Shown: positions 13,525 to 42,945 of the stretch, one piece after another
Layout: every line of letters begins with the position of its first letter
Position numbering within the stretch: position 1 is the stretch's first letter
NCBI GenBank assembly: GCA_964383765.1
Contig: CAYLHT010000002.1
Span: 62,774-126,773, forward strand
Direction: 5' to 3'
Length of the DNA: 64,000 nucleotides
Source: an uncultured Gammaproteobacteria bacterium
GTDB lineage: Bacteria > Patescibacteriota > Patescibacteriia > SBBC01 > CAIJZX01
The notes under the pieces: model-generated
Told to the model about the DNA's origin: nothing
Databases searched by the model: none
The model's input: the letters and a program-made list of their open reading frames with translations, nothing else
Program-made: the position numbers and the translations under genes

Positions 13525-13584
13525 GTGAATAAGTTTCAACATAAACAAAAAGAAAAAAGTTTTTTTATGGCTAATCTTAGCGTC

Positions 13585-14643: not shown

Positions 14644-14652
14644 ACCAAGTCC

Positions 14653-15645: not shown

Positions 15646-15652
15646 ATTTTCC

Positions 15653-18078: not shown

Positions 18079-18094
18079 TATACTCAAGGTGAGT

Positions 18095-19552
18095 ATGCGC
18101 CGACTCGAAAGCATCTTGACGCATCGCTGGTTGCTCAAACCAGCCGTAACTGGCGGAGTGGTCGCCGCAATTTTTTTGTTGAATGTCCACGGGGCTGACG
18201 CGACTGGAGCCAGTTTGAAAATTTCTCCGCTGACCGGAACCTATGAAGTCGGGAGTACGGTCGATGTTTCGTTTTTAGTAGACACCGGCGGCGACGCGAT
18301 CAATGCTGTCCAAGCTGATATTCAATTTCCGGCCGATAAACTCCAAGTGGTCAACCCGGTGGCCAGTACCTCGTTCATTTCGATCTGGGTGACGACGCCG
18401 ACTTATTCGAATACCGACGGGACCATTCACTTCCAAGGCGGTTTACCCAACCCCGGAATCAAGACCGGCGGTGGCGTCATTAGTACAGTTACATTTCGGG
18501 TCAAAACTCCGGGGCAGGCTATCATTAAGTTTGCGCCCACCTCGCAGGTCTTACGCAACGACGGTCAGGGGACCAATATTCTGACCAGCACCGGTACGGC
18601 CGAGTATACGCTCAAGACGCCGCCACCAGCCGGGCCGGTGGTCTCGAGTCCAACCCATCCGGATGGTAACCAGTGGTACAGCAATCCGGACATTCAGTTT
18701 ACCTGGGAAGCGATCGATGGAGCGGTAGGCTATAGTTATAGCTTTGATCAAGTAGCAAAATCGACACCAGATGAGAGCATTGATACGGCCCAGTCAGCCA
18801 CCAGCGTGAAAGCTACTGGCGACGGCGTCTGGTATTTCCATGTTCGCGCTCGAACGACCAGTTGGGGCGGGACCACAACCTATCCCGTGCAGATTGATAC
18901 CACGCCGCCAGCCGCCTTCACGCCGAAACTGGACAGTGAAACGATTGTCCCGGACGATTCAACCACCTTACGTTTTTTGACTTCAGATGCCGCCTCCGGA
19001 ATTGATCATTACGAGGTCAGACAGGTGACGGTTGATGCTGGGCCCGATATCAATACCTTGTTCGTCGAAGCCAGTAGTCCGTACGTCGTCAAACCCGTCG
19101 CGGCCGGTAAGTATGAACTTCAAGTCCGAGCCTTTGATCGGGCCGGCAATTCGACGGATGGGACCGTCCGTTTGTCCGTCGTGGCGGGAGGTTTGCCATT
19201 CTTTGCGCGCGTCCCACTCTTGAAGAATCCGGCCATTGCCAACGCCGCCATGTTGGGGTTGCTGATCGCGGTGGTCCTAATGCTCGGATATTTAGTCGTC
19301 CGGCGTCTCCGTCTGCGCACGACGGTCCAGCGTGACGTGGCGGCCCTCGAACGGGATGCCGAGAAAAAAGCGGCTGCCCTCCAACGCGAGTTGGATGCCT
19401 TGCGGCAAGCCCAGCAAATGATTCAACCGGCCGTCGGCGCTCCCGCCCCATCGAGTGGAACCATGACGACGACGCCGTCCGCCCCGGTGCCCCCAACTGT
19501 GCCACCGTCCGCTCCAGTCGTCCCACCCCCACCCCCAGTGCCATCGCTATGA
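18095..19552 (+). CDS. Membrane-anchored cohesin-like domain protein 2 (485 aa): signal peptide, cohesin-like domain, two Fn3-like domains, TM, coiled-coil and Pro-rich tail.
   Basis: Start chosen at ATG 18095 (MRRLESILTHRW...signal) with AAGGTGAG upstream, because the tracked ORF start at 17936 overlaps the previous gene. Cohesin-like region SLKISPLTGTYEVGSTVDVSFLVDTGGDAINAVQADIQFPADKLQVVNPV...VISTVTFRVKTPGQAIIKF. TM LGLLIAVVLMLGYLVV. Confidence 0.7.
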   Translation: MRRLESILTHRWLLKPAVTGGVVAAIFLLNVHGADATGASLKISPLTGTYEVGSTVDVSFLVDTGGDAINAVQADIQFPADKLQVVNPVASTSFISIWVTTPTYSNTDGTIHFQGGLPNPGIKTGGGVISTVTFRVKTPGQAIIKFAPTSQVLRNDGQGTNILTSTGTAEYTLKTPPPAGPVVSSPTHPDGNQWYSNPDIQFTWEAIDGAVGYSYSFDQVAKSTPDESIDTAQSATSVKATGDGVWYFHVRARTTSWGGTTTYPVQIDTTPPAAFTPKLDSETIVPDDSTTLRFLTSDAASGIDHYEVRQVTVDAGPDINTLFVEASSPYVVKPVAAGKYELQVRAFDRAGNSTDGTVRLSVVAGGLPFFARVPLLKNPAIANAAMLGLLIAVVLMLGYLVVRRLRLRTTVQRDVAALERDAEKKAAALQRELDALRQAQQMIQPAVGAPAPSSGTMTTTPSAPVPPTVPPSAPVVPPPPPVPSL

Positions 19553-21228
19553 CGAAGTCATCGGCAATCGTCATTGTGTCTGTGGTGCTCCTGTGGTTTG
19601 GCTTGCATCCTGCCCGAGCCTCGGCGGCCAGCCTGTATTTTAGTCCTAGTCAAAAATCAGTTGTCACCGGGGGTCGAGTAACCGTGACACTCAAGGTCAA
19701 TGCTCAAGGTCAAGCAATCAATGCTGCGGAGGGCAGTATCCGGTTCTCCAATTCGCTGCTGCGGCTGGTCTCCATCAGCAAAAGCGGATCAATTTTTACT
19801 TTTTGGCCAGTCGAACCATATGGTTCGACTACTGCAGGCACAGTCAGCTTCTCTGGCGGTCTCCCGAATCCGGGCTACGCTGGTTCAAGCGGCACACTTG
19901 TCAGCCTCAGTTTTGAAGCGCTCAGTAGCGGTACCGCCGAACTTTCCATTTCGGGCGCGAAAGTTTTAGCCAACGACGGTCAAGGCACAAATGTCCTCAC
20001 TACCTATGGTTCAGCTAGCCTGACCATCGGCGCCGCCAGCGCTCCTCCGCCCACCCCGCCAACTGACTCACCGCGACCAGCCCCAATCGTGAGTTCGACA
20101 ACGTTCCCAGACCAAAGTACCTGGTATACATCCGAGCAGGGGAACGTGAGTTGGACGAAACCAAGCGGAGTCACCGGCTTCAGCTTTCATCTCAGTCAGG
20201 ATCTGAACGATGTCGTCGATGAAACGGTTGACACCACCTCGACCACGACGTCGATTGATGTCTTGACCGATGGCGTGTGGTACTTTGCCGTTCGGGCCAA
20301 GTCTGCAAGCGGATGGAGCGCGCCCAGCCGCTTCCGCATTCAGCGCGACCATACTCCGCCCGCCGACTTCACCATACAGATCCAGCGCGATCGTGGAGTG
20401 ACCGACCCCTCTCCCCACGTTGTGTTTACCGCCACTGATGAAACCAGCGGGATTGATCACTACACCTTATCGCTTGATGGTGGGACGGCCACTGAAGTGA
20501 GCAGTCCGGCCAATTTGGCTAATCTGACTGCCGGCCACCACCACGTCATGGTCATCGCTTTTGATCGAGCCGGTAATCAGACGACTAGTCAGACTACTTT
20601 CGATCAGGTCGGTTATCCGGCTCCGATCATCACCAATCTGACGAGCCCACTATTGCTACTGGATCGACTGATTGTTAAAGGGACTGCCACGGCCGGCGAC
20701 ACCGTGACCGTCTTTATAGACAATCAACCGATTGGCCAAGCCATTGCTGGTCAGGTTGATACGAGTGCTCAGGCGGAAGGAGTGACGGTCCGGGCGCCGT
20801 GGATTCTGACGACCGACCATATCTTTCGGCCAGGGCACTATCAGGTGACCGCCCAAGCCGCGGGAGTCAACGGCGAACTCAGCGTAATGACCGATCCGAG
20901 CCCGCTCCTCGTATCGGGGCACTCAATTTGGCTGAGTGGCCAACCGATTGCGACGATCGCCCTGGCCCCGGTGGCCGCGATCGGGTTTGTGGTCTTAGTT
21001 GGTTTGATCACCTTGAGCATGGCGCAGCTACTGTGGACAGTCAGACGCATGCATCTGCGGGAAGTAACCGTCGAACGCGAACTTGAAGATTTACGACGGC
21101 GGGTCAAACGTGGGCAAACCACCTCGGTTGGCCTGGACGAATCATTGGAGGATATAGAACGAGACTTAGTTCGGCCTCGGCGCTCGACCGTTCGTCGGCC
21201 TCGACGCACTGGCCGTCGCCGATCGTAA
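19549..21228 (+). CDS. Membrane-anchored cohesin-like domain protein 3 (559 aa): signal peptide, cohesin-like domain, Fn3-like domains, Ig-like domain, TM and basic tail.
   Basis: Cohesin-like region ASLYFSPSQKSVVTGGRVTVTLKVNAQGQAINAAEGSIRFSNSLLRLVSISKSGS...TLVSLSFEALSSGTAELSI, paralogous to 16954 and 18095. TM AIGFVVLVGLITLSMAQLLW followed by an Arg-rich tail. Confidence 0.7.
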   Translation: MTKSSAIVIVSVVLLWFGLHPARASAASLYFSPSQKSVVTGGRVTVTLKVNAQGQAINAAEGSIRFSNSLLRLVSISKSGSIFTFWPVEPYGSTTAGTVSFSGGLPNPGYAGSSGTLVSLSFEALSSGTAELSISGAKVLANDGQGTNVLTTYGSASLTIGAASAPPPTPPTDSPRPAPIVSSTTFPDQSTWYTSEQGNVSWTKPSGVTGFSFHLSQDLNDVVDETVDTTSTTTSIDVLTDGVWYFAVRAKSASGWSAPSRFRIQRDHTPPADFTIQIQRDRGVTDPSPHVVFTATDETSGIDHYTLSLDGGTATEVSSPANLANLTAGHHHVMVIAFDRAGNQTTSQTTFDQVGYPAPIITNLTSPLLLLDRLIVKGTATAGDTVTVFIDNQPIGQAIAGQVDTSAQAEGVTVRAPWILTTDHIFRPGHYQVTAQAAGVNGELSVMTDPSPLLVSGHSIWLSGQPIATIALAPVAAIGFVVLVGLITLSMAQLLWTVRRMHLREVTVERELEDLRRRVKRGQTTSVGLDESLEDIERDLVRPRRSTVRRPRRTGRRRS

Positions 21229-21351: not shown

Positions 21352-21429
21352 GGGTGATTAGCTCAGCCCGGTTAGAGCGTTCCGTTCACATCGGAAAGGT
21401 CTCAGGTTCAAATCCTGAATCACCCACCA
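21352..21429 (+). tRNA. tRNA-Val (anticodon CAC) with genomically encoded CCA.
   Basis: Manual cloverleaf: acceptor GGGTGAT/ATCACCC, D-arm GCTC...GAGC, anticodon stem TTCCG/CGGAA with loop TTCACAT, T-arm TCAGG-TTCAAAT-CCTGA, discriminator A, CCA. The tracked ORF 21354 overlaps it and is spurious at its 5' end. Confidence 0.85.
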
Positions 21430-22127
21430 TGCCCACCCCCAACTCCCAGCAGCCACCCGAAAATCCCCTTGGCGACCCGCGCCGTTTTAAGGGCCTGAGT
21501 ACCGATCTCAAGAAATTGGCGGCCACCGAGCCGCGATCAGAGTTTTTACCAAGCTTTCAACGTTCAGTTGGCGGTTTTGCAAGTGAACTGATCAAGATTA
21601 TTCTGATCGCGTTCGCGATCATTATCCCACTTCGGTTTTTTATCCTGCAGCCGTTCTATGTCAAAGGGGCCTCGATGGAACCAAATTTTCACGATAATGA
21701 ATACTTAATCATTGATGAACTCTCCTATCGCCTGCACGCGCCCCAACGCGGTGATGTGATCGTGCTGAAAAACCCCAGCCAACCGTCAGAATTTCTGATT
21801 AAACGTATTATTGGTTTACCGAATGAGCGTCTGACGATTGCGGATGGTGCCGTCACGATTTATAACGCGACCTGGCCAGACGGCGGAGTGCTCGACGAAT
21901 CAAGTTACTTACCGACCGGTCGAGAAACCTTTGGGCAACTCGATGTCACCTTAGGGCCGGGAGAATACTATGTCCTGGGTGATAACCGGCCGGCCAGCTT
22001 GGACTCACGCGTATTTGGACCGGTCCTTCGGTCGGCGATTATCGGCCGGACGGCAGTCCGGGCTTGGCCGTTATATCGGGCGCGGACATTTAGCACACCC
22101 ACCATCGATCGAAAAGTCGTCAAGTAA
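21429..22127 (+). CDS. lepB: Signal peptidase I (LepB family).
   Basis: Catalytic and box motifs GASMEPN, GDVIVLKNP, IKRIIGLPNERL and YYVLGDNRPASLDSR. The start ATG overlaps the terminal A of the tRNA-Val CCA. Confidence 0.85.
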   Translation: MPTPNSQQPPENPLGDPRRFKGLSTDLKKLAATEPRSEFLPSFQRSVGGFASELIKIILIAFAIIIPLRFFILQPFYVKGASMEPNFHDNEYLIIDELSYRLHAPQRGDVIVLKNPSQPSEFLIKRIIGLPNERLTIADGAVTIYNATWPDGGVLDESSYLPTGRETFGQLDVTLGPGEYYVLGDNRPASLDSRVFGPVLRSAIIGRTAVRAWPLYRARTFSTPTIDRKVVK

Positions 22128-22129
22128 TC

Positions 22130-23542
22130 ATGCCCAAAGATTCTGCCGCTCCGCCGCAGTTATTACGGGGCATGAAAGATATCATGCCTGCCGACCAGTC
22201 CTACTGGTGGTGGTTATTTGACGTGGTGCGGGAAATGGCTGAACGGTACAGTTTTGAACGAATTGAGACCCCGGTGCTCGAAGCCACCAATCTTTTTACC
22301 CGTTCAGTTGGAGAAACGACTGACATTGTTTCGAAAGAGATGTACACTTTCACCGATAAAAACGGTGATAATGTCAGTTTACGCCCCGAGAACACGGCCA
22401 GTATCGCCCGGGCCTATATCGAGCACGGCATGCTCAACCTCCCGCAGCCGGTCAAGCTGTGGTACTTCGGGCCGTTCTTCCGACACGATCGACCGCAAGC
22501 CGGCCGCTACCGCCAGTTTTGGCAATTTGGATTTGAAGTCCTGGGTGCCCCGCAGTCGGTGATCGACGCCCAACTGATCCTGATCGGTCGTGGGATTTAC
22601 CAAGCCCTAGGTTTGGAGACGACGATCCAAATTAACAGCTTGGGTGACAAAGCTTCCCGCCAACAGTACATCAAGGCGCTGCAGAATTACTTCCGGACCA
22701 AAAAGTCAGAATTGTCTGAAGAACAGAGACTACTGCTCCAGAAAAATCCGCTGCGTTTGTTGGATAGTAAAGATCCGGCTGTGCAGACACTCTTAACCGA
22801 CGCGCCGCAAATGATTGATTATTTGGATGAAGCCGCAAAGCAGCACTTTCAAGAGGTGGTTGGTTACTTGGATGAAGTTGAGGTCGCCTTTACCCTCAAC
22901 CCGCGTCTGGTGCGTGGTCTCGATTATTACAATCGCACGGTCTTCGAATTCTGGCCGCTCGGGGACGACACCGGCCAGAGCAGCTTGGGCGGCGGCGGGC
23001 GCTATGATACCCTCGTTGAAACGCTGGGCGGACGACCAACCCCGGCCGCTGGCTTTGCGGGCGGCATTGAACGAGTGCTACTGAAAGCCAAGGAACTGCA
23101 ATTACAGCCCCCGACAGCGGCCCGCCCAGAAATTTTCCTGGCCCAGCTCGGCGATCCGGCTCGCCGCAAAATGTTGAAACTGTTTGAACAACTCCGAACC
23201 GCCGGAGTGCGCGTCGCAGAGAATCTGGTGAAAGATGGTCTGAAAGCCCAACTCGAAATGGCCAATAAACTTGGGGCGCATTACACGCTGATCATCGGTC
23301 ATAAAGAATTGATGGACAGCACGATTCTCATCCGTGACATGGAGAACGGAATTCAAGAGGTGATTGATTTTGCCAAAGTGGTTGGCGAAATCAAGAAGCG
23401 CCTGGAAAAATCCAAGAGTAATGGCACTGCGCCGGTGGTCGGTCAAGTTGCACCGGAACGTTTGGAGAAGTACAGTCAGCCCGACGACGACCAAGAAGAA
23501 ACCCGGATGCCGCCGATCGATGATGGCGCCGACGATGCGTGA
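22130..23542 (+). CDS. hisS: Histidine--tRNA ligase.
   Basis: Class II aaRS HisRS motifs: LRPENTASIARAY, WYFGPFFRHDRPQAGRYRQFWQFGFEVLG, GGGGRYD. The C-terminus carries an anticodon-binding domain. Confidence 0.9.
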   Translation: MPKDSAAPPQLLRGMKDIMPADQSYWWWLFDVVREMAERYSFERIETPVLEATNLFTRSVGETTDIVSKEMYTFTDKNGDNVSLRPENTASIARAYIEHGMLNLPQPVKLWYFGPFFRHDRPQAGRYRQFWQFGFEVLGAPQSVIDAQLILIGRGIYQALGLETTIQINSLGDKASRQQYIKALQNYFRTKKSELSEEQRLLLQKNPLRLLDSKDPAVQTLLTDAPQMIDYLDEAAKQHFQEVVGYLDEVEVAFTLNPRLVRGLDYYNRTVFEFWPLGDDTGQSSLGGGGRYDTLVETLGGRPTPAAGFAGGIERVLLKAKELQLQPPTAARPEIFLAQLGDPARRKMLKLFEQLRTAGVRVAENLVKDGLKAQLEMANKLGAHYTLIIGHKELMDSTILIRDMENGIQEVIDFAKVVGEIKKRLEKSKSNGTAPVVGQVAPERLEKYSQPDDDQEETRMPPIDDGADDA

Positions 23543-23888
23543 TCCGAATTGCCTGTTTTGTAAAATTGCGGGACACGACATTCCGAGCGAAATTGTTTTT
23601 GAAGACGACAGTTTGATCGCTTTCAAGGATATTCACCCAAAAGCTCCGGTGCATGTGCTCATCATTCCTAAAGATCACGTGATGAAATCGGTCGCCGACA
23701 TGACTGAAGATCAGGCAGCGATGCTTGGTCAGATGATGTGGCGGGCGAAACTGGTGGCGGCCGAGCAGGGGATTGAGGCCGATGGGTACCGGTTAGTGTT
23801 CAATGTCCGGAAACACGGCGGCCAAGAAGTCGATCATGTGCATTTGCATTTACTGGGCGGCGAGCCGCTCGGGCCACTTCGTGCTTAA
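23535..23888 (+). CDS. HIT-family (histidine triad) nucleotide hydrolase.
   Basis: CLFCKI N-terminus and HVHLHLLGG histidine triad. Start taken at the ATG overlapping the hisS stop (alternative ATG at 23523). The 5' part of the tracked ORF is out-of-frame overlap. Confidence 0.8.
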   Translation: MRDPNCLFCKIAGHDIPSEIVFEDDSLIAFKDIHPKAPVHVLIIPKDHVMKSVADMTEDQAAMLGQMMWRAKLVAAEQGIEADGYRLVFNVRKHGGQEVDHVHLHLLGGEPLGPLRA

Positions 23889-23894
23889 GACAAT

Positions 23895-23923
23895 TTGACG
23901 AATCATCGAAAAGGTGGTACAGT
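23895..23923 (+). promoter_or_regulatory. Promoter candidate TTGACG-17-TACAGT upstream of rpsU.
   Basis: TTGACG at 23895-23900, a 17-nt spacer, TACAGT at 23918-23923. RBS GAAGGAGG lies 8 nt before the rpsU ATG. Confidence 0.4.
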
Positions 23924-23974
23924 CGCACTGCCGAATTTCGGTTCGGCGTATCCTGTTGAAGGAGGTGTCCCTCA

Positions 23975-24256
23975 ATGATTGAAGTCAAAAAACGCGACAA
24001 CGAATCGAGTGAAAGTCTGGTTCGCCGCTTTACCAAGCGTGTCCAGCAATCCGGCGTTCTGCTGAGGGCAAAAAAACGCCGTTTTTACGAACCCGCGCCG
24101 AATAAGCGCGAACTTCGGGTTGATGCGCTGCGCCGCAACCACATCCGGCAAGAACGGGAAATTCTCCGCAAACTCGGCAAACTCGAAGAGTACGACCTGA
24201 AGAAACGGGGCAAACCGCGTAAGCGATTACCGTCAATTCCACGGACGACCGCGTAA
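23975..24256 (+). CDS. rpsU: 30S ribosomal protein S21.
   Basis: Basic 93-aa protein, ...RRFTKRVQQSGVLLRAKKRRFYEPAPNKRE..., typical of bS21, with a strong SD. Confidence 0.8.
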   Translation: MIEVKKRDNESSESLVRRFTKRVQQSGVLLRAKKRRFYEPAPNKRELRVDALRRNHIRQEREILRKLGKLEEYDLKKRGKPRKRLPSIPRTTA

Positions 24257-24258
24257 TC

Positions 24259-24699
24259 ATGCCGCTGCTACAAAAAATCGAGGACGACTACAAAGTTGCA
24301 TTTAAGGCACACCAGGATGCCAAGGTGAATGTCTTGCGGATGGTCAAAGCGGCTATCAAAAACGCGGAAATTCAAGCTCGGCACACCTTGAACGATGACG
24401 AAATTATCGCAGTCATGACCAAGGAAGCCAAGCGGCGGCGCGAAGCCATAGCGATGTATCAACAAGCTAACCGTCAGGATCTCGTCACATCGGAAAATGC
24501 GGAACTGCAGGAATTGATGTATTACCTGCCGACCGAGATGAGTGACAGTGAGCTCGATCAGGTTGTGACCGGAGTGATCGCGGAGCTCAAACCCACGCCC
24601 AAAGATTTCGGAAAAGTTATGTCGGCGGTGATGGCCAAAGTTAAAGGCCAAGCCGACGGTAGCCGCGTCTCCGCTCGCGTGAAAGCCAACCTTCATTAA
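24259..24699 (+). CDS. yqeY: GatB/YqeY domain protein.
   Basis: YqeY-like sequence: AFKAHQDAKVNVLRMVKAAIKN...FGKVMSAVMAKVKGQADGSRV. The rpsU-yqeY adjacency is common. Confidence 0.8.
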   Translation: MPLLQKIEDDYKVAFKAHQDAKVNVLRMVKAAIKNAEIQARHTLNDDEIIAVMTKEAKRRREAIAMYQQANRQDLVTSENAELQELMYYLPTEMSDSELDQVVTGVIAELKPTPKDFGKVMSAVMAKVKGQADGSRVSARVKANLH

Positions 24700-24726: not shown

Positions 24727-27700
24727 ATGCTTGCCCTGAGAAAAACTACAATTTCAAGACTGTTCATCGTCGGTGTGATCACCGCCGCTGTGATCGTGGT
24801 CGGCGGATGGTTCGTGGTTCCGCGTGTCACGTCGGCCTTGAGCATCGAACCGGTTGGCAACACTCTCGGCCTGGCTTCGACTGACCTGGTTGATATTGCG
24901 ATCAATGTCGTCAAGTGGGCGCTCGGATTTGTGTCGCTCGTGGCTGTCTCATATCTTATCTACGGCGGGTATTTGTGGTTGACGGCGGCCGGCAATGAAC
25001 AGCGCGTCGAAAAAGCTAAACAAGTCATTCTCCAAGCCGTGATTGGGATTGTGATTATCATCCTGGCCTGGGCGATTGTCCTGTTTGCCGCGCGCACGGC
25101 CAGTAACGTCACAAGTGGCAGTAACACGAACTCCGGTGGCGGACCACCCTGCCCATTATGCACCGGCGGAACATTTAACCTGACCGCCGTGACGTCGTGT
25201 TCTGCGGCGCCGAACTATGCCGACAACGTACCGCGTTCGAGCGCGATTTCCATGACGTTCAATACTGATGTCGATAGTCAATCTGTCAAAAAAGCGGTGG
25301 AGGCGAGCGGTGCAGCCAACAATCCGAAGCTCCAGATTGAGTTTTGTGGAACTGACCCGAATTGCGGAACACCGAGCACGCCCAAACCGCTCAACCAGCA
25401 AATATACTCCGGCGCAACCACCACCGGTGCCCAGGGTAGTCCCAAGCAGGAATGGGTCGCCAGCGGTAATACCGTCACCTTCTATCATTTATCGTTCTCC
25501 ACCGATCCAGCCAGTTCCGATAACCAGTATTTTGAAGCTGGAAAATATTACCGCTTGACTATTCCCCGTCACACCTCGAACACGGCCCTACTCGACATGC
25601 AGTCCCGGGTGTTAGAGAACTGTGGTGACGATCCGCTGAGCGGGATCGTTGGCGATCACTGCGACACGTCGAATCCGGACCTGATCCGTTGGACGTTCCA
25701 AACCGGAAGTGATACCGATGGTCCAGCTCTGCAAGTCACGTCGACCCAACCGAGTTCCACGTACCTGGTCGCATCCTCCAACACCAAGCCCGATCGCAAT
25801 ATTCCGCGCAACGCCGCGCTCAATGTCAGCTTTTCCACCGCGATTGATCCGGCCTCAGTCAGCACGGCGAACTTCCGGGTCTACAAGTTTACAACTCCGC
25901 CTGACCCCAATACGGGCAACGGGGGCGTGACGGATACGAACCCGCTCGATCCGGCCACCTTTGACATTCGCGTCAGCCCTGATGGTCGGGGTGCTTGGCT
26001 GCAGCTGAAAACGACACTGTTTGAAAGTTTCACGTGGTATAAAGTCGTGGTTGAAAAAATTCGCAATTTGTGCGGAACAGCCATGGCGAATCCCTACACC
26101 TGGGTATTTGAAACGAGTGACGCCGCTCCGGGCGTGGCCCAAGTGTACCCGAGCGACCAATTTTCCCATGCTTGTCCGTCCACGAAAGTCTTCATTCAGT
26201 ACACCACCTCGATGTGGAAGGTGGGCAGCGGTAGTTTCAACTGTTCCCCCAGTGCAGCCGGTTCCTACGTGACGAATGGCGCGATGTCGCCGACTCCCGC
26301 CGGGCGAGGGTTTACTGTGGTTGATCAATTCAATCAAGCCGACCCCTATAACACCTGTAAGATGTACAGCTTCACGCCGGAGAGCGCGAACCTCACCCCC
26401 GGCACGACGTACCATGTTGGAGTCGACTCTTCCTTGGTGTATGACGCGAACGGCACGAAGCTCAACTATGGCGACACGCCGCCGGCCAGCACGCCGTCCA
26501 AGGGGCCGTGGAGTTTCACCGTCGACCCGGCCGACAAGTGCTACCAACCGCCGGTGATTACCGCCGTTCAACCCAACCAGGGACAAGCCGGGCAGTGCGT
26601 GTCCGTCATTGGCGATTACTTCCTCAAGCCGAATACCACTTCCCCGGGTACGAATGACAAGCTGACTCTTGGCAGCCAGAATCAAGCTGTTCAGTCCGGA
26701 GCCTGGAATCGACAATCGATTGTCTCGAAAGTCGACGCGACGAATTTAGCGGCCGGCCAATCCCATCCCTACCAAGTGACAGTTGATTACGGCGGGCAGA
26801 TTGGGTTGCTCAAGAGCAACGCTATGAACTTCTTGTTGAACAGCGGGACCAACACGAATGGTGTGTGCTTGTACTCGCTCAATCCCAACCAAGGTCAAAC
26901 CGGGTCAGGCCTAGTTGCGTCGGGAGAAGGTTTTGGGTCGTATGTTGTGAATCAAAGTAAAATCTTGGCGAGTCCGTCCACAACTGGAGCATGGCCAATC
27001 TCCAGCAGTAACGATTGGACTGCTACCCAAATCAATAATATTTCGGCGGCCACGAATGTACCCGTCGGACAAAGTCAGATTACTGCGCAGATTAGTGTTC
27101 AACGATCCGATGGGGCGACCAGCAATGCATTACCGTTTACCGTCCAAGCGCCAACCACCGGTACGCCCACGGTCGAAGAAAATGCTAGTTGCGACATTGC
27201 CCAAAACATCACCCCCAGTCCAAACCCGCGCCGGGGGGACACTGAGGTTTGTAAGAATGCCCTGGTCTCAGCCCGGTTTACCATGCCGATGGATTTAGCA
27301 ACCCTGACTGCTGCCAATATCACTCTGCGTTCATGCACCAGCTCAACGAGCTGCACAAATCCGGTCACCGCCCCGGTCAATCAGCTAGGGAATAATGGTT
27401 TCACGATGACTCCGAATGGGGGTTTTGGAAGAAATACCCTGTACGAAGTGACCATCTCGACCGGGGTCAAATCCGATATCTCCGTTGGGAATAAACCAAT
27501 GGCGAGTCCGTATACCTGGCAATTCAAGACGGCGGACACGAACGACAATTGTCCAGTCGCCGGGGTGACAATCACGCCAGCCGGACCGTTGGTCGAGCGT
27601 ACCACTCCATATGGGATCAATGGAAACGGTGAACCACTGACCGCGCTAACCGTTGATCAATCGTGCCGGGTCTTAAATCCTGGGACAGGCACTTTTACCT

Positions 27701-30700
27701 GGTCAATCACATCATCTCCGCACGTGGCTGATCTTCAACCCACGAACACGTCGTCGAGCAACGTGGCAACTGATCCACAACCCGGACCGCCGGATGTCGG
27801 ATCAGCTCAAATCAAAGTTGCGGTGGCCACCAAGACTTCAGCTCCAGTCACGATTACGTATGATCCGACGAGCTGCCAGACGAGCGCCGACTGTGCCAAG
27901 AATCGCTATGGCGAAACGTGCGGGGGCTCACAATGTGTGAACAACCATTGTACCCCAGTCGTGAATGGCGTCGATCCGACCAGTGGTTCAATCGGGACGT
28001 GGACTACGGTCAAGGGCTGCTGGTTTAGTGGATACGATCCGAACAAAAGCAAGGTGACGTTCCTCGGTGGCAGCGGAACGGCCGATGATCGAGATGGTGT
28101 AGTTCCGAGCACAACCATTTGTGGACCGGCCGGTTCAACCTGGGAGAACGAACGGATTATTACTGAGGTTCCGAAGGTTGATATCGGCCCAAATGACCCA
28201 AGTAATGATGCGGCCACTGGTCCAGTCCAAGTCACGCGCGATGATGGCAAAACCGCCGCCTCAACCGGCAGCTTTACCGTCAACACCACGGTCCACCCCG
28301 GCCTCTGTCGGATTGTGCCGGATAATGCCTTGCCAAATGCGAGTATCACCATCAATGGTATCCGATTTGGCCCTGACGAACCGGCCAAACGAACGGCCCA
28401 GGACCAAGCTAATCTAACCAAGATCGGAACATCGACTCCAGTGCTGATGACAACGTACACGGCCTGGTCCGACACCGGCACCAAAGCGTCAATTGACACG
28501 GCTGTACCGGCGACTGCCGGTTTGGGCGACAACGAAGCTCGGGTCAAGAATGATGGCCAAGATTCGAATCCCTGGCCGTTCCACGTCAATGACCCGAATG
28601 CAACTGGTCCGGGGAGCTGTCCGGCTGGTCAGCAATGTTTCACCGATAATGCGGCGAATTGCACGGCGCTGGGTTTGGGCTGTGGGTTAACCGACCAATG
28701 TTGCCACGCCATCCCCACGATTGTCAGCTTCCAACCGCCGCAAAACAGTACGAATGTCTGTCGGAATATCGCTCCCCAAGTCACGCTCAGTCAGCCGCTC
28801 GATCCGAGTACCGTCAACACCAACACCATCCGTTATTACAATGGCAATGCGCAAGCGTTACCGAGTGTGGGGCTCGATAATCAAAGCAATCAATCGACGA
28901 TTACGGTTAGCCCGGGCGTCCTCAGCCCGGGCGCGGCGCAAGAGCTTGATTTAACAACCGCCAACTCGGCCGCTGTGACCGTTGACAACCCGAGTTTTGA
29001 AAATGGCACGAATGGAGTGCCAGACCAATGGGGGTCAACCCTCGTCAAGCAATCAACTGATGTCCCGCCCGGACACTCTGGTGTATCCGCTTTAGGTGAT
29101 TGTAGCGCCTGCACCGGTGGTCAAGCGTTCGCTGCGCAAAATATTCCCGGTACATCGGCACCGAATATCACGTACCACCTGACCGGCTGGGTCAAGGCCG
29201 AGGTGTCGTTGGCCAGTTCGGCTGGGTTGATCACCCGATGCTCGGCGACTGGGAATGGTTGCGGTTATGACCTAGGCAGCTCTGCTCCGGGCTTGTTTGA
29301 CAGTCGTGGCAGCAATGGCTGGGTCAAAATTGATGTGATTATTTCTAAAACCCAAGCCAATACCGATCTGATCTCGATTGACTGTTTCGCGAATGCTGGC
29401 TCTAAGATTTGGTGCGATGATATTTCCCTGACCCGGGAAACTGGCGGCGGTACATTGTTGCGCAGTGACCATGGCGTATTGGCCGATGTCAGTGGCTCGC
29501 CGTTGAAATTTACTGCCGGAACAAACATCTGCACGATTGATCATGTTGGGGTGACGCAGAGTAGTTATCTGCTGACGGCCGTCAATCAACTGGCCAACCC
29601 AATTCCTCGGGCCTATGCGTACAGCCAGAATGGCTGGATACTCCAGAATTTATCCACCTATAGCTGGGATTGGTCGTGGTTGAGTGGGAACAGCACTATA
29701 GCCACCGCGACCATGACCACGTTGCCGAACAGTTCGACCAGTCAAGCCAACGTGACGGCGAAAGCGAATGGCCAAACAACCGCCCAAGCCAAGGCGAAAG
29801 TCACCTTTAACTCCGCCAACCAGAACGACAAGTCGGAGAGAACTGGACAATCGGACATCACCGTCAGTTTTTGCAACAACCCATGGATCTTCAAAGATGA
29901 TGTGAATGGGACGAGCTGCACGTCGGGAACCTGTAATGTCTATAACTATCAAATGTTCTATTGTCGGGATCAAAGTGGCTCCGCGTTGTTACCCGACTTC
30001 AGTTACAAGGTGATCGAGGGTGTCAACGCGGCTGATCCCACCCGGCTCAAAAGCTATTTCTTTAAAGAATCACAAACCAGCCGCGATACGATTGGGGTCC
30101 TGATTTTCAAGAATGATGCCTTGCTCTCACCCAGCGACTGGTTCGCGCAGCGGTTCCCGTTAGAAACCGGCGCCGCGTCAGCGACCGTTAATGGGTATCC
30201 GGCGGTGAAAACTGGCACGACGACCTATGTCGGCGTGACCAACAACACCGGTACAAAACTCCAAGGGTTAATGTTCGTCTTCGACTATAATTCGAACAAT
30301 GCCTCAGATACAACCAAGAATATCTACGGACAAATTATTGATCACCTCTTGTTCAATCGCAATGACAACTCGGCGAATCGACAAGCGATTATCAACGATA
30401 CCAAGCGGGGACAAGACTTGGCCAGCGTCAAAGTCGCTTTGGACAACTATAAAACTCTGCACGGCGGGTATCCAAAGCTCGACAGCGGTACCTATCTGCC
30501 CGGGTATTCGACCTCGGCTTGGCCATCATGGCAATCTACCCTTGGTCAGACCCTGAACAAGTCATTGTCGACGGATCCCTCGAATGACTTTGCGCAAAGC
30601 TGTCCGACCGACTATGCCGCCTCGACCTGTTGGAGTGAAGCCAACCACGCTTTCCAGTGTCCGGATGACTCGCACGTCTATCTGTATCATTCGGATGGCT

Positions 30701-30837
30701 CAACCTACAGTCTGTATGGTCACATGGAATACACCGGCGCGGGCGGCTTTGCCAACACCAACTCCAGCGATGACCCCTGTAGCAGTCAAGCTGGGTCAAA
30801 CTGCGGTTGTTTCAATTACAAATTGACGGGATCCTAA
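24727..30837 (+). CDS. Giant (2036 aa) multi-domain extracellular protein: N-terminal two-helix TM hairpin, SbsA-type Ig-like domains, IPT/TIG-like domains, a CBM_4_9-like carbohydrate-binding module, and a C-terminal pseudopilin/GspG-like segment.
   Basis: N-terminus VVKWALGFVSLVAVSYLIYGGYLWLTAAGNEQRVEKAKQVILQAVIGIVIIILAWAIV (TrbC/VirB2-like hairpin). Ig-like starts NVPRSSAISMTFNT and NIPRNAALNVSFST. IPT-like PVITAVQPNQGQAGQCVSVIGDYF. CBM-like NPSFENGTNG...WGS...YHLTGWVKAE...IWCDDISLT. C-terminus DLASVKVALDNYKTLHGGYPKLDSGTYLPGY, which is T2SS pseudopilin-like. Confidence 0.8.
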   Translation: MLALRKTTISRLFIVGVITAAVIVVGGWFVVPRVTSALSIEPVGNTLGLASTDLVDIAINVVKWALGFVSLVAVSYLIYGGYLWLTAAGNEQRVEKAKQVILQAVIGIVIIILAWAIVLFAARTASNVTSGSNTNSGGGPPCPLCTGGTFNLTAVTSCSAAPNYADNVPRSSAISMTFNTDVDSQSVKKAVEASGAANNPKLQIEFCGTDPNCGTPSTPKPLNQQIYSGATTTGAQGSPKQEWVASGNTVTFYHLSFSTDPASSDNQYFEAGKYYRLTIPRHTSNTALLDMQSRVLENCGDDPLSGIVGDHCDTSNPDLIRWTFQTGSDTDGPALQVTSTQPSSTYLVASSNTKPDRNIPRNAALNVSFSTAIDPASVSTANFRVYKFTTPPDPNTGNGGVTDTNPLDPATFDIRVSPDGRGAWLQLKTTLFESFTWYKVVVEKIRNLCGTAMANPYTWVFETSDAAPGVAQVYPSDQFSHACPSTKVFIQYTTSMWKVGSGSFNCSPSAAGSYVTNGAMSPTPAGRGFTVVDQFNQADPYNTCKMYSFTPESANLTPGTTYHVGVDSSLVYDANGTKLNYGDTPPASTPSKGPWSFTVDPADKCYQPPVITAVQPNQGQAGQCVSVIGDYFLKPNTTSPGTNDKLTLGSQNQAVQSGAWNRQSIVSKVDATNLAAGQSHPYQVTVDYGGQIGLLKSNAMNFLLNSGTNTNGVCLYSLNPNQGQTGSGLVASGEGFGSYVVNQSKILASPSTTGAWPISSSNDWTATQINNISAATNVPVGQSQITAQISVQRSDGATSNALPFTVQAPTTGTPTVEENASCDIAQNITPSPNPRRGDTEVCKNALVSARFTMPMDLATLTAANITLRSCTSSTSCTNPVTAPVNQLGNNGFTMTPNGGFGRNTLYEVTISTGVKSDISVGNKPMASPYTWQFKTADTNDNCPVAGVTITPAGPLVERTTPYGINGNGEPLTALTVDQSCRVLNPGTGTFTWSITSSPHVADLQPTNTSSSNVATDPQPGPPDVGSAQIKVAVATKTSAPVTITYDPTSCQTSADCAKNRYGETCGGSQCVNNHCTPVVNGVDPTSGSIGTWTTVKGCWFSGYDPNKSKVTFLGGSGTADDRDGVVPSTTICGPAGSTWENERIITEVPKVDIGPNDPSNDAATGPVQVTRDDGKTAASTGSFTVNTTVHPGLCRIVPDNALPNASITINGIRFGPDEPAKRTAQDQANLTKIGTSTPVLMTTYTAWSDTGTKASIDTAVPATAGLGDNEARVKNDGQDSNPWPFHVNDPNATGPGSCPAGQQCFTDNAANCTALGLGCGLTDQCCHAIPTIVSFQPPQNSTNVCRNIAPQVTLSQPLDPSTVNTNTIRYYNGNAQALPSVGLDNQSNQSTITVSPGVLSPGAAQELDLTTANSAAVTVDNPSFENGTNGVPDQWGSTLVKQSTDVPPGHSGVSALGDCSACTGGQAFAAQNIPGTSAPNITYHLTGWVKAEVSLASSAGLITRCSATGNGCGYDLGSSAPGLFDSRGSNGWVKIDVIISKTQANTDLISIDCFANAGSKIWCDDISLTRETGGGTLLRSDHGVLADVSGSPLKFTAGTNICTIDHVGVTQSSYLLTAVNQLANPIPRAYAYSQNGWILQNLSTYSWDWSWLSGNSTIATATMTTLPNSSTSQANVTAKANGQTTAQAKAKVTFNSANQNDKSERTGQSDITVSFCNNPWIFKDDVNGTSCTSGTCNVYNYQMFYCRDQSGSALLPDFSYKVIEGVNAADPTRLKSYFFKESQTSRDTIGVLIFKNDALLSPSDWFAQRFPLETGAASATVNGYPAVKTGTTTYVGVTNNTGTKLQGLMFVFDYNSNNASDTTKNIYGQIIDHLLFNRNDNSANRQAIINDTKRGQDLASVKVALDNYKTLHGGYPKLDSGTYLPGYSTSAWPSWQSTLGQTLNKSLSTDPSNDFAQSCPTDYAASTCWSEANHAFQCPDDSHVYLYHSDGSTYSLYGHMEYTGAGGFANTNSSDDPCSSQAGSNCGCFNYKLTGS

Positions 30838-31358: not shown

Positions 31359-32426
31359 ATGTTTGAAGATCAAACCCAACCCCAAGGTACGCCGCTCAAC
31401 CCGATCATGCCCGCTCCCGGCATGAGCCCCACTCCCACGCCACCGATGGCTCCGCCGGCTCCAACGCAAGCCGCGCCGATTCATACGATGCCGGAACGCT
31501 TCCGGGCCGCAGGCGGCGGCGGACAACCCAGCGGCGGGAAAGGTTCAACCAAGAAATTGGTGATTATTTTGGTAGTCGTATTGGTGGTCGGCGGTCTCGG
31601 ATTCGCCGGTTTGTATGTGTTCCGCAATGTCTTGAACAAGTCGAACGCGAACACGAATACGGTTGTCATCAATCGCACCAACCAAAATACGAACAATCTT
31701 AACTTGAGTAATTCCTCTAGCAACCTCAACCTCTCGAATGAGAATACCAATGGGAACGCGAATGCCAACGCGAACGGGAATCTGAATAGTAACACCGAAC
31801 CGAGCAATACGAACTCGACCGTCACTCCCGCCAGCCCGTTACCGTCCTCGTTGGACACTGATGCGGACGGATTGACCGACGTTGAGGAAGCGGTGTATGG
31901 CACGGATCCAGCCAAGGCCGATACAGATGGAGACACGTTTATTGATGGTGAGCAGAAGCGTTCAGACGGTTCAATCGTTGGAGAACTTTACCTTGGATAC
32001 AATCCTAAAGGCACCGGTCCGTTAGAGGGCTCAGGTCTGGTCAAGCGGGTTGAGAATGCCACCAAAACCTACAGCCTGCTCATGCCGAGTAGTTGGACCG
32101 GCACCGCCGATCAGTCCGGAGGCATCCTCATCAATCCGACTCAGCAAACTGGAGAATTCTTTCAGACCAACATCAGCGACAACCCAAACAAGCTCAGCCC
32201 GAAAGATTGGTACAAGACGAATAACCCAACGGCCAACGTCGATCAACTCATGACCATCGCGGTGAATGGCTTGGATGGAGTCTACAGTGAAGACCTGAGC
32301 ACCGTGTACCTGTTGAAAGACACCAAGGTCTACAGCATTCATTATGACCCAGGTTCGCTGACGCAGGTCAACTACCGGACGACGTTCGATATGATGGTCC
32401 GGAGCTTCCGACTTGTCGCGAGCTAA
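31359..32426 (+). CDS. Paralogous TSP3-repeat protein (355 aa) with Pro-rich N-terminus, TM, Asn-rich low-complexity linker and a C-terminal globular domain.
   Basis: TM LVIILVVVLVVGGLGFAGLYVF. Linker NLNLSNSSSNLNLSNENTNGNANANANGN. Repeats DTDADGLTDVEE and DTDGDTFIDGEQ, as in the 30838 protein. Confidence 0.6.
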   Translation: MFEDQTQPQGTPLNPIMPAPGMSPTPTPPMAPPAPTQAAPIHTMPERFRAAGGGGQPSGGKGSTKKLVIILVVVLVVGGLGFAGLYVFRNVLNKSNANTNTVVINRTNQNTNNLNLSNSSSNLNLSNENTNGNANANANGNLNSNTEPSNTNSTVTPASPLPSSLDTDADGLTDVEEAVYGTDPAKADTDGDTFIDGEQKRSDGSIVGELYLGYNPKGTGPLEGSGLVKRVENATKTYSLLMPSSWTGTADQSGGILINPTQQTGEFFQTNISDNPNKLSPKDWYKTNNPTANVDQLMTIAVNGLDGVYSEDLSTVYLLKDTKVYSIHYDPGSLTQVNYRTTFDMMVRSFRLVAS

Positions 32427-36810: not shown

Positions 36811-38400
36811 GTGATTTTATCTCGATTTTTCGTTCCCGATCTTCGGTCTGAGACGCTAACGCAGCCGACGTGGCGTCAACATCGCTGGCCCCAAATAGTC
36901 GTTTTCACATTGGCGACGATTTTTGCTCTCTGGTTTTCGTGGTTCACCATTCAGCGGGCCCAGAATTTCAACGCCGGGTGGTATGACTTGGGCATTATGG
37001 CCCAGACGGTCTGGCGGACTAGCCATGGGTTTGGATTTACGTTTACCAACCCAGAACTTGGTCCAGGTGGGGCGCATGGCTGGACAGCGCCGCGGACGAG
37101 TATTCATACCGACTATTTTCTGATTCTCCTTGCGCCGTTGAGTTGGTTTGGCAACACGGTCGCCGGACTACTGATCATCCAAGCTGCCGTGGTTGCACTC
37201 GGCGCCTGGTTTGCTTGGCGGATTGCGACTCGGTTGATTGGGCGGCCGTGGTTAGCTGTGATTGTAGCCGGGCTATTCTTGTCAGCGCCCCCGCTCGAGT
37301 TCGCGGCCATGTTTGAGTTTCATAGTGTCACGCTGGCGATCACGTTCATCTTGGCGGCCGTTGATGCACTATTGGCTCGCCGTAATCGCGCGTTTTGGAT
37401 GTGGGCAGGGTTAGCGTTGATCACGAAAGAAAACACAGGCATCACGCTAGGACTGATTAGCTGGTTGGTGTTGTGGTGGCAAAGTCGCCGAAAACTTGCT
37501 TGGTGGGCACTGGGCGTGTGTTGGGCGTGGGTGATCATCCAGATCGGCGCCGTGATTCCGCTCTCTCGGCAACATGTGTCCGCGAGCTTCACGAACAAAT
37601 TCTACGGCGGGGGAGAAGGGCAATCTGGTCTTGCCTTCTTGAAACGTCTCTTCAACCCCAGCCTGGCTTGGCACAAACTCGCCACAGCAGTTCACCTGAA
37701 CTCTGGTTTTCAATTACTCTTACCCGGCGGGCTTCTGTTAGCGCTGCTTAGCCCAATGATACTGCTAGCAATTCCAGAACTGCTGCTCTATTGGCTGTCG
37801 GACAGCCCGAACCAGCAAACGGTGGTATTGCATTATCACGCCCTGGTTATTCCAGTGGTGTTCTTGGCATCAATGTTTGCTTGGCGATGTTTCCGGACAG
37901 TGGGATTTGGGCGCGGGAGGGGAAAAAACTTGGTTGATGGAGTCTGGATTGGCGCACTGGTTCTGTCGACAAGCTGGGCTGCAGTCCGATTGGGGCCGTT
38001 ACCCGGCGCTGGACAGACGCGGTGGCCGTTGGTGGCTTGGAAAGAGCATTTGGCACCGAACGTTACTGAGGCGCTGAACATCATTCCAGCTCGCGCCAGT
38101 GTAGCCACGACCCAAAACCTCGGTCCAGCCCTGGCTGAACGGCCGACGGTGTATTTGTTGCCCAGTGGCGTCAAGCAAGCGGACTACATTGTCGTTTTAG
38201 AGCGCCAATTTCCAGCTGACCTGAAGACGAGCGACAAACGGTTGGCGGAAAAAATCATGCTGGAGCGGCTGCAGGACTGGCTAGCCAGTTCCAGCGCTTA
38301 TACCAAACGATATCAGGTCGACCGCGTCTGGGTTTGGCAGAGAATAGGGGATGAGCCTCGACCACTGCCAGCTTGGCCCGATCATTTGCTCGGTCAGTAG
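36811..38400 (+). CDS. Polytopic integral membrane protein (529 aa), GT-C-like / DUF2079-like putative glycosyltransferase.
   Basis: About 12 predicted TM helices with extracytoplasmic loops, and a C-terminal soluble domain. Family assignment is by architecture only. Confidence 0.5.
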   Translation: MILSRFFVPDLRSETLTQPTWRQHRWPQIVVFTLATIFALWFSWFTIQRAQNFNAGWYDLGIMAQTVWRTSHGFGFTFTNPELGPGGAHGWTAPRTSIHTDYFLILLAPLSWFGNTVAGLLIIQAAVVALGAWFAWRIATRLIGRPWLAVIVAGLFLSAPPLEFAAMFEFHSVTLAITFILAAVDALLARRNRAFWMWAGLALITKENTGITLGLISWLVLWWQSRRKLAWWALGVCWAWVIIQIGAVIPLSRQHVSASFTNKFYGGGEGQSGLAFLKRLFNPSLAWHKLATAVHLNSGFQLLLPGGLLLALLSPMILLAIPELLLYWLSDSPNQQTVVLHYHALVIPVVFLASMFAWRCFRTVGFGRGRGKNLVDGVWIGALVLSTSWAAVRLGPLPGAGQTRWPLVAWKEHLAPNVTEALNIIPARASVATTQNLGPALAERPTVYLLPSGVKQADYIVVLERQFPADLKTSDKRLAEKIMLERLQDWLASSSAYTKRYQVDRVWVWQRIGDEPRPLPAWPDHLLGQ

Positions 38401-42400: not shown

Positions 42401-42945
42401 ACAAAGTCTTCATCCGCACCGGCGAATATAACGACGGTCGCTTGGGCGAAGTCTTTATCGATATGTACAAAGACGGAGCCGCCTACCGCTCGCTGATCAA
42501 CTGCTTCGCGATTCTGGTCTCAAAGAGTTTACAGTACGGCATGCCGCTGGAAGAACTGGTTGACACGTTCACCTTCACGCGTTTTGATCCGGCCGGCCCA
42601 GTCATTGGTCATCCCAACATCAAGATGGCGACGTCAATTCTGGACTACATTTTCCGATTGCTCGGCTACGAGTACTTGAACCGCGACGACCTCGTTCAGG
42701 TCAAACCAAACACATCGGAACAACCTGTCCAAGCCCAACTTCCAGGCACTGCGGTGATTGAAAAACCGAAAAACGTAGCCGCCACGGCCATCTCCATGTC
42801 CCCGGCGCCGGACAACTCTTTGGCTGTCGCCAAGGCTCAAGGCTTTACCGGCGACACCTGTGGCAATTGCGGTTCGATGAAAATGAAGCGCAATGGGTCG
42901 TGCATGTTGTGCATTGAGTGCGGGACGACCACGGGGTGCTCGTGA
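39439..42945 (+). CDS. nrdJ: Class II (adenosylcobalamin-dependent) ribonucleoside-diphosphate reductase NrdJ (1168 aa).
   Basis: Active-site region [21 protein letters not shown]. Length and order match long monomeric NrdJ. C-terminal Cys-rich zinc ribbon [22 protein letters not shown]. Confidence 0.9.

Follow-up and report, generated by a model that had tools for sequence, protein, structure and literature searches.

The giant gene and its N-terminal module

This analysis concerns a single long gene on contig CAYLHT010000002.1 (assembly GCA_964383765.1), within a stretch of 64,000 nucleotides at positions 62,774 to 126,773 that we refer to as the window. The gene lies on the plus strand at 24727-30837, exactly where an initial annotation, made from the sequence alone, had placed an open reading frame (ORF) of 2036 amino acids (aa). 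We call its product the giant. It consists of an N-terminal leader and membrane hairpin, a long stalk of mostly immunoglobulin (Ig)-like domains and a conserved C-terminal head of two domains, H and I. The features are as follows (res, residues).

24727-30837 (+): whole gene; ATG start, 2036 aa, about 214 kDa
24727-24840 (+): leader (res 1-38); basic n-region, hydrophobic core, predicted signal-peptidase site after ...TSALS
24847-25110 (+): complete VirB2-type pilin module (res 41-128); two transmembrane helices with the loop WLTAAGNEQRVEKAKQ, matching PF18895
25111-25206 (+): Ser/Asn/Gly-rich linker with a conserved Cys pair (CPLC), beginning where free-standing pilins stop
25213-26520 (+): first part of the stalk (res ~163-598), Big_5-type Ig-like domains from whole-protein and fragment scans with Pfam
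26551-26790 (+): IPT/TIG domain (res 609-688); 24.0 bits against a cut-off of 20.9 on a 200-aa fragment
27223-27531 (+): best Big_5 domain (res 833-935); 55 bits
27874-28122 (+): Cys-rich knot (res 1050-1075, from the Cys positions), then a weak TIG-like match (res 1077-1132; E 0.035)
28714-28959 (+): Big_5 domain (res 1330-1411); 30.6 bits
28987-29526 (+): region F (res 1421-1600), an optional insert with a weak CBM_4_9-like match, missing in homologues of about 1.9 thousand aa (kaa)
29857-30354 (+): H domain (res 1711-1876); beta-rich with two helices in the AlphaFold2 model, no Pfam family, median identity 53%
30355-30834 (+): I domain (res 1877-2036), a type IV pilin-like head, from hhalign, AlphaFold2 and T2SSG matches in family members

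The giant ORF is not a chance one, because public collections contain the identical protein (P0001) and 52 homologues, about 44 of which are colinear with it end to end. Their identity to the giant runs from 67% down to about 27%, and full-length colinearity at that distance also rules out a pseudogene. The named homologues come from Candidatus Kerfeldbacteria, Falkowbacteria or 'Patescibacteria group'. The family comprises proteins of about 1.9-3.4 kaa in class ABY1 (Kerfeld-, Falkow-, Uhr-, Komeili- and Magasanikbacteria), labelled in the databases as 'Ig-like domain-containing protein' and nothing more. A phmmer search of the PDB sequences with the whole giant gave no match. The ectodomain is acidic (pI about 5.0) and rich in Thr, Ser and Asn; the whole protein has 52 Cys. 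The G+C content is even over the window (about 0.50-0.57). The median identity to 33 family members is 67% in the hairpin, the best conserved part of the giant, 34-42% in the stalk, 53% in H and 47% in I, and the leader is unconserved.

Leader, cleavage site and topology were judged by hydropathy and alignment. The N-terminus had been described as two hydrophobic helices reminiscent of TrbC/VirB2 pilins. The hairpin is real, its helices (about 54-83 and 94-128) being joined by the loop TAAGNEQRVEKAKQ; hydropathy reveals three hydrophobic segments, and the first of these, the leader (about 11-32, in a hydropathy segment at 6-36), had been overlooked. An alignment of 53 family members shows a varying leader, conserved sequence after it and AxA-type sites that recur at the same place. 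The leader is thus predicted to be cleaved after about residue 38. From ...GLGxADL to the end of the second helix the family is nearly invariant, the loop WLTAAGNExRVEKAK included. The proposed kinship with TrbC/VirB2 holds up well: the PF18895 (T4SS_pilin) model scores 35.2 bits on residues 53-118 against a curated cut-off of 26.6, covering model positions 4-68 of 71. The NCBIfam model Mbov_0395, for a pilin-like protein of a Mycoplasma integrative and conjugative element, scores 30.2, below its cut-off of 40. Searching plasmids and phages with the hairpin by tblastn gave no match, and there is therefore no direct link to known conjugative elements. As far as can be predicted, the giant has the leader, the two helices and the short basic loop of a PF18895 pilin; such pilins are small (about 100-150 aa, the module alone), whereas the giant has 2036 aa.

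The same module occurs by itself in class ABY1. With one genome taken per GTDB species, at least 595 stretches match the hairpin alignment, and the named genomes among them are Kerfeld-, Falkow-, Uhr-, Komeili- and Magasanikbacteria; where Table S1 of PMC12102498 lists Kerfeld-, Falkow- and Magasanikbacteria, it assigns them to class ABY1. The 84 related loci that we examined contain 125 complete hairpin ORFs, in three size classes.

113-250 aa: 51 ORFs; free pilins, mostly in tandem arrays of 3-9
250-1000 aa: 27 ORFs; mid-size fusions
at least 1000 aa: 47 ORFs, 36 of them with the C-terminal head too

The free pilins (113-150 aa in their tandem arrays) terminate at ...AWAIVIFVARTTADVT, also given as ...FVARTTADVT, and the Ser/Asn/Gly linker of the giant starts exactly there. 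The module of the giant is 49-55% identical to free pilins of related genomes. Within one genome the likeness is closer: giant P0008 shares 61-62% with two free pilins of its own assembly, giant P0045 shares 61% with a free pilin on the same complete chromosome, and in the 12 genomes that have both kinds the identity ranges from 58 to 74%. Over these 12 genomes the median identity between giant and small hairpins (48%) is not below that among the small ones (46%). Other fusions join the hairpin to PG_binding_1 or to Big_5 bodies of 600-1,100 aa, and it therefore appears to be a general display module in ABY1.

In Kerfeldbacteria the free-pilin arrays are opened by a hairpin-PG_binding_1 protein and flanked by genes for an NTP-transferase, a solute-binding protein and DUF2079 membrane proteins; no VirB4 candidate was found within 10 kb of them. 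The first gene is larger than the rest in the arrays of L011, L013, L016 and L017. In L011 (7990-9156) it encodes 389 aa, a T4SS_pilin hairpin fused to PG_binding_1, and is preceded by NTP_transferase and solute-binding-protein genes. In loci of Falkow-, Uhr- and Komeilibacteria type (L004, L048, L067, L069, L075, L076, L078-L081) a hairpin protein of 575-1,100 aa is encoded directly upstream of the giant; that of L004 (7858-9963) has a weak Big_5 match. L003 has two giants in tandem.

We note that DUF2079 membrane proteins recur near hairpin genes (36811-38400 in the window, 20838-25534 in L001, 10715-12727 in L011 and 11155-13155 in L017). There is one such gene after ftsZ and an aldo/keto reductase gene in the window, there are three after ftsZ in L001, and a DUF2079 gene directly follows free-pilin arrays. 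This recurrence may hint at modification of the Ser/Thr-rich hairpin proteins.

The stalk and the C-terminal head

The SbsA-like Ig domains and the IPT/TIG domains named in the initial annotation are both present. On the whole giant Big_5 (PF13205, the SbsA-type Ig domain) scores 96.4 bits over five stretches, above its cut-off, and a fragment scan places the domains at about 336-463, 544-598, 833-935 and 1330-1411. TIG (PF01833) is not reported when the whole giant is scanned, and a fragment scan was needed to bring out the domain at residues 609-688. Homologues P0014, P0038, P0040 and P0041 have TIG above the cut-off at matching positions; in P0014 it is also above the cut-off further along, in the stalk block that corresponds to residues 1077-1132. 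Two Cys-rich knots (1050-1075 and 1298-1326) separate the stalk blocks. Neither the whole-protein nor the fragment scans gave a match to SLH or a comparable Pfam domain.

A 'clear' CBM_4_9 sugar-binding module had also been claimed, and this proved an overstatement. On region F CBM_4_9 (PF02018) scores 14.5 bits (E 0.048), below its cut-off of 25.9; it matches 6 of 20 homologous region-F segments, with a best E of 0.0011. A profile of region F found no solved structure among the PDB sequences. The region is lacking in about a quarter of the close homologues, in all distant ones and in the members of about 1.9 kaa. We regard it as a divergent, optional lectin-like insert at best. The suggested carbohydrate-binding function derives from this sub-threshold match, and since the region is absent from about a quarter of the close homologues such binding cannot be the core function of the family.

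All homologues retain the last 335 residues or so of the giant as one block, including those with a different middle part or with additional sequence behind it. The AlphaFold2 model of the H-I unit, built from an alignment of 31 sequences, has a pLDDT of 90.7 and a pTM of 0.88. The matches of the H domain to the PDB by Foldseek are weak and heterogeneous (BT_1490 at E 5e-4, then MucB, TP0453 and PsbP) and give no confident fold assignment. Against a library of viral structures H matches a phage 'lipoprotein' (E 2.5e-4), and all its matches there are 'lipoprotein' ones.

The I domain resembles the head of type IV pilins. Its model (pLDDT 91.5) comprises a 31-residue helix (H6-36), a short helix (H60-67) and four to five strands that form a small beta-sheet; the domain carries conserved Cys. 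An alignment of Patescibacteria type IV pilins, seeded from the pilin in locus L078, matches it by hhalign with 95.4% probability (P 1.7e-8), and with relaxed settings the two are colinear over 113 columns. The probability against an alignment of GspG is 82%. Of 31 family members, 12 match the Pfam family T2SSG (PF08334) weakly, the best at E 0.0098, and the source giant itself has no match at the curated cut-off in whole-protein or piecewise scans. Four GspG/EpsG sequences of the PDB match the H-I or I profile at E about 1, always on the same motif. In structure comparison, type IV pilins make up 6 of the 12 PDB matches of I alone, at non-significant values (E 2.9-7.6, TM 0.22-0.28), and no pilin is among the top 50 PDB matches of the H-I model. 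Alpha1-C, the alpha-beta loop and the antiparallel sheet of a type IV pilin head are thus recognisable in I by hhalign and AlphaFold2, with weak support from Foldseek. A likeness of the last 120 aa or so to pseudopilins had been proposed, with HHpred or Foldseek named as a check. The likeness is real by profile methods, the Foldseek matches to pilins being non-significant, and the domain is longer, about 160 aa (1877-2036). The initial Pfam scans, whole and piecewise, showed none of T2SSG, CBM and TIG; these came to light in fragment, member-wise and profile-profile comparisons.

Compared with type IV pilins and GspG (PF07963 plus PF08334; PDB 1t92, 3gn9 and 5wda), the I domain matches alpha1-C and the start of the alpha-beta loop (DxKRxxDLxxIxxALxxYxxxxGxYP). 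The relaxed match runs on through the DPxN and YxL..ME motifs, and the predicted secondary structure is pilin-like. The match begins at about pilin residue 39, just past the hydrophobic half of the helix, and I itself opens with the polar NRNDNSANRQ. It has no prepilin leader, no Gly-1/Phe+1/Glu+5 and no hydrophobic alpha1-N, and it lies internally or C-terminally, always behind H. No class III prepilin leader motif (G/F(M)/E+5) was found in the giant, in the window or in the first four loci. Lacking both the leader and the hydrophobic helix half, I cannot be a pilus subunit in the usual way.

The I domain is widespread. Its profile matches at least 1,675 representatives of 50%-identity clusters at E<=1e-3, of which 1,380 are at E<=1e-10, and the longest of these proteins reach 6,060 aa. 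Among the best 150 matches to the I profile together with the first set of homologues, 178 of 182 proteins have both H and I, and of the 131 complete long proteins with I, 125 have the hairpin as well. A second, short architecture of 700-1,100 aa has a plain signal peptide, the second half of H, I and a long C-terminal part (P0076, P0091, P0099, P0113, P0117, P0138 and P0139). In P0076 the head is fused directly to TSP3 repeats (thrombospondin/COMP matches, E 1e-24); a PDB search with P0139 returned nothing.

Gene neighbourhood and interpretation

The giant sits among genes for an S26 signal peptidase, HisRS, HIT and YqeY on one side and, on the other, two TSP3 proteins (169 and 355 aa), YbeY, DAGK, FtsA and FtsZ, with NrdR and a ribonucleotide reductase further along after FtsZ. 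The same gene order is found in the Kerfeldbacteria loci L001-L003 and the Falkowbacteria locus L004. The genes nearest to the giant are the following.

21354-24699 (+): conserved upstream block of S26 signal peptidase, HisRS, HIT and YqeY, in the same order in L001, L002 and L004
30838-31347 (+): downstream partner 1, 169 aa; N-terminal transmembrane anchor and three TSP3 (Ca-binding type) repeats
31359-32426 (+): downstream partner 2, 355 aa; transmembrane anchor, low-complexity spacer, one TSP3 repeat and a C-terminal domain

The stop codon of the giant abuts the start codon of the 169-aa TSP3 gene, and there is no convincing terminator between the giant and the downstream genes. The C-terminal domain of the 355-aa protein weakly matches the second half of H (E 7e-6). 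Of 32 giant loci, 28 have a TSP3-motif gene at most 2.5 kb downstream. The gene for the giant is vertically inherited in this housekeeping and cell-division neighbourhood. [quoted passage not shown]

No T4SS or type IV pilus machinery is encoded in the window, which extends 24 kb upstream and 33 kb downstream of the giant. Apart from ComEC, the genes of the window are housekeeping or surface-protein genes, and the Pfam families of a T4SS cluster such as accompanies PF18895 pilins (virB3, virB4, virB6) are absent from it. A crude Walker-A screen of the 84 related loci gave no VirB4-like ORF. A genuine type IV pilin gene (173 aa, 4573-5091) lies 5 kb upstream of the giant in the Komeilibacteria locus L078, the only one of the 84 loci with such a gene near the giant. 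The initial annotation had missed the leader, the H domain, the coupling of hairpin and head, and this housekeeping and division synteny free of T4SS and type IV pilus genes.

We propose, with moderate confidence, that the giant is a core cell-surface fibre of a class ABY1 bacterium, tethered by its pilin module. Taking this proposal as given, we think it somewhat the better guess that the protein stays membrane-tethered; that it is additionally built into a pilin polymer is less probable, but well worth considering. The giant would take the biogenesis route of the free pilins, with Sec insertion and a leader cut after about residue 38. The hairpin loop would then lie in the cytoplasm with both ends outside, so that the whole C-terminal part would be displayed beyond the membrane. 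Fully extended, the stalk might measure tens of nanometres, as estimated from the number of domains, a length sufficient to traverse the wall and hold the head out at the cell surface. The earlier suggestion of a fibre or tether fits well with a leader, a membrane hairpin and some 1,900 predicted extracellular residues, mostly Ig-like. The hairpin shows the conservation of a working pilin, and its 67% exceeds what a mere anchor would need; the contacts made by such a pilin are, we infer, preserved in the module, which would not simply anchor the protein but also interact with the free pilins or the platform that assembles them. Throughout the class the head has diverged less than the stalk, which suggests that it binds a conserved partner. 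A self-encoded partner such as the adjacent TSP3 proteins is the most likely, ahead of a host ligand that varies, and variable contact with glycans would come from the optional region F. Of the link to a pilus system that had been suggested, the N-terminal half stands, given the 49-55% identity to free pilins and the 58-74% identity within genomes in homologues. Of the C-terminal half the kinship of I with type IV pilin and pseudopilin heads holds, but I is without the leader and hydrophobic helix needed to enter a pilus and gives no sign of interacting with one.

The nearest concept to the giant is the modular type IV pilin, from a different superfamily. In modular type IV pilins such as PilB and PilC of Streptococcus sanguinis a functional module is grafted on to the C-terminus of the pilin. 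The design idea is the same, a complete pilin module with a C-terminal graft on display. The giant, however, has a VirB2 hairpin in place of a class III signal peptide and alpha1, a graft 5-20 times larger, and an incorporation into filaments that is putative. Pilin-type signal peptides also tether non-pilus surface proteins in Sulfolobus, where they serve the sugar-binding proteins of the 'bindosome'. A pilin-type N-terminal module is likewise reused for display in ABY1, with PG_binding_1, Big_5 bodies and giants as cargo. The 'bindosome' uses archaeal type IV pilin-like signal peptides, whereas ABY1 uses a VirB2-type hairpin, with no dedicated assembly genes identified. With the giant Ig-repeat adhesins (Big_5/SbsA-type, TIG) the giant shares a long acidic Ig stalk, Cys-rich knots and an optional lectin-like insert. 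It differs from them in being anchored by an N-terminal pilin hairpin and not by sortase/LPXTG, SLH, type I secretion system retention or an autotransporter. Furthermore, the distal head is the most conserved part of its ectodomain, and its gene is a core gene in conserved synteny and not an accessory one.

VirB2-like pilins and their arrays have already been described in Patescibacteria, where they were treated as small pilins and no T4SS adhesin was reported (PMC10633639, PMC12102498, PMC12857230). The T4SS and the VirB2-like pilins are essential in the one lineage tested, Southlakia (PMC10633639). The VirB2-like pilins of the Southlakia epibionticum and TM7x T4SS loci (PMC12102498, PMC10633639) have about 110-150 aa and form tandem arrays, in many lineages beside virB4. 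With its leader, two helices and basic loop the N-terminal module of the giant is a member of this group at the level of the domain. The giant differs in its 1,900 or so extra residues past the second helix, and in its housekeeping and division locus with no T4SS gene nearby. In the papers covered by our full-text searches PF18895 proteins are counted as VirB2; we found no mention there of giant PF18895 fusions and no description of the H-I head.

Several points weigh against a tethered surface fibre. The location, leader cleavage and topology of the giant are predictions from hydropathy and alignment, and the polymerisation of PF18895 proteins in class ABY1 is putative. No T4SS genes were found in the window or, by the crude screen for VirB4, in the 84 loci, so that the link to a T4SS reduces to family-level homology. 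The partnership of the head with the TSP3 proteins is drawn from gene adjacency, one fusion architecture and the weak H-like match, which was detected in only 4 of 49 other loci. Finally, 6 of the 131 complete head-bearing proteins have a different N-terminus, and the hairpin is therefore not strictly required for the function of the head.

The giant might instead be a modular VirB2-type pilin, built with the free pilins into a T4SS-type pilus as a tip subunit or one that sparsely decorates it. In that case it would be the adhesin that seems to be missing from the T4SSs of Patescibacteria. We think it rather unlikely, though the strongest of the alternatives, that the giants are in this way true subunits of a VirB2-type pilus with a 200-kDa adhesive fibre, their type IV pilin-derived head linking both fibre systems physically or functionally. 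Both ends of VirB2/TraA point outwards from the pilus, and C-terminal fusions are tolerated by F-pilin; both facts suit such a subunit. So do a hairpin as close to the free pilins as these are to each other (58-74% within a genome) and the near-invariant loop WLTAAGNE..KAK common to both. VirB2-like pilin arrays occur phylum-wide with no PrgB-type or other T4SS adhesin found in Patescibacteria (PMC12102498), and Table S1 of that paper, in the genomes that it lists, has VirB4 in most of class ABY1, including most Kerfeldbacteria and the Falkowbacteria genome of P0051. Yet the examined loci have no T4SS gene in the neighbourhood of giants or of free-pilin arrays, pilus formation by PF18895 proteins in ABY1 is itself putative, and a 200-kDa extension on a pilus subunit is without precedent. 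A conserved head and a core gene syntenic with housekeeping genes are also unlike a host-range adhesin. Another alternative is an S-layer-like envelope scaffold, structural and not adhesive, in which membrane-rooted pillars carry the heads and the Ca-binding TSP3 proteins as an outer canopy. Such a scaffold could explain a core gene kept beside ybeY-dgkA-ftsA-ftsZ across the class, an acidic, Thr/Ser/Asn-rich protein with SbsA-type Big_5, a distal head conserved above the stalk, and Ca-binding-type partner genes that adjoin the giant and are fused to the head in some relatives. The GT-C-like DUF2079 proteins near hairpin genes could mean glycosylation. To our knowledge, the surface layer seen by cryo-electron microscopy on such cells has not been assigned to a protein. 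We nevertheless hold the scaffold to be doubtful, somewhat more so than the pilus subunit: no lattice-forming or SLH-type domain was identified, and a lattice protein would not usually have several paralogues in one genome that differ in their domains.

The initial annotation favoured a carbohydrate-binding tether, with I docking on, or handled by, a type IV pilus or a system like the type II secretion system. The weak CBM_4_9 similarity of region F, the kinship of I with type IV pilin heads of the same phylum and the pilin gene upstream of the giant in one related locus point that way. We judge it improbable, as region F is missing from about a quarter of the close and all of the distant homologues, I has neither the prepilin leader, whose motif occurs nowhere in the window, nor the hydrophobic helix half, and type IV pilus genes are absent from the window, with a pilin gene nearby in 1 of 84 loci. 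Least credible of all, in our view, is that the pilin module serves for export only, a peptidase cutting after the second helix to free a pilin and a 200-kDa exoprotein. In favour of this, the C-terminus of RP4 TrbC undergoes trimming in which the S26-type peptidase TraF has a part; the free pilins end exactly where the linker of the giant begins, and an S26-family peptidase gene lies in the conserved upstream block. That gene, however, may simply encode the signal peptidase for general housekeeping, we identified no conserved motif for cleavage in the linker, and the fusion of the hairpin to PG_binding_1 suits an anchored protein, not a released one.

Much of the uncultivated diversity of bacteria belongs to the Patescibacteria, whose cultivated members live attached to other microbes. 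Proteins throughout ABY1 join this one pilin module to large extracellular parts, among them a conserved fibre of about 2 kaa with a head from the other pilin superfamily. The giant family therefore provides concrete proteins to test as candidate contact or envelope fibres of the kind seen on such cells, and a natural experiment on the carriage of cargo by a VirB2-type pilin. Should the hairpin be a plain anchor, it would still be a new mode of anchoring giant surface proteins in single-membrane bacteria. Should the giants prove to be pilus subunits, they would be the first modular VirB2-type pilins and would supply the T4SS of these bacteria with an adhesin.

Other genes of the window

A second giant ORF occupies 1-13488 (+) and encodes at least 4,495 aa; it runs off the left edge of the window. 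Pfam gives no match to it at E<=0.01, the PDB sequences give none, and our local profiles detect neither hairpin nor H or I in it. Six consecutive surface-protein genes follow at 13525-21228 (+), with Dockerin_1 and Cohesin above the cut-off and weaker matches to WxLIP_PGBD, Big_13 and Big_6; similar genes lie upstream in L001 and L002. These genes may encode a cohesin-dockerin assembly in a Patescibacteria genome, a possibility suggested by the domain matches.

The class II ribonucleotide reductase at 39439-42945 (+) has 1,168 aa. Its barrel match falls in two stretches and TSCPD lies far downstream (985-1075), so an insertion is possible. ComEC at 54779-57050 (+) consists of two ORFs that overlap by 20 nucleotides, with the Competence domain in 54779-56206 and the Lactamase_B domain in 56187-57050; this is either a natural split or a frameshift. 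Lastly, many of the ABY1-type loci (L010, L016, L020, L025, L029, L031, L036, L041-L043, L045 and others) come from third-party assemblies titled 'uncultured Gammaproteobacteria bacterium', a label that looks wrong.

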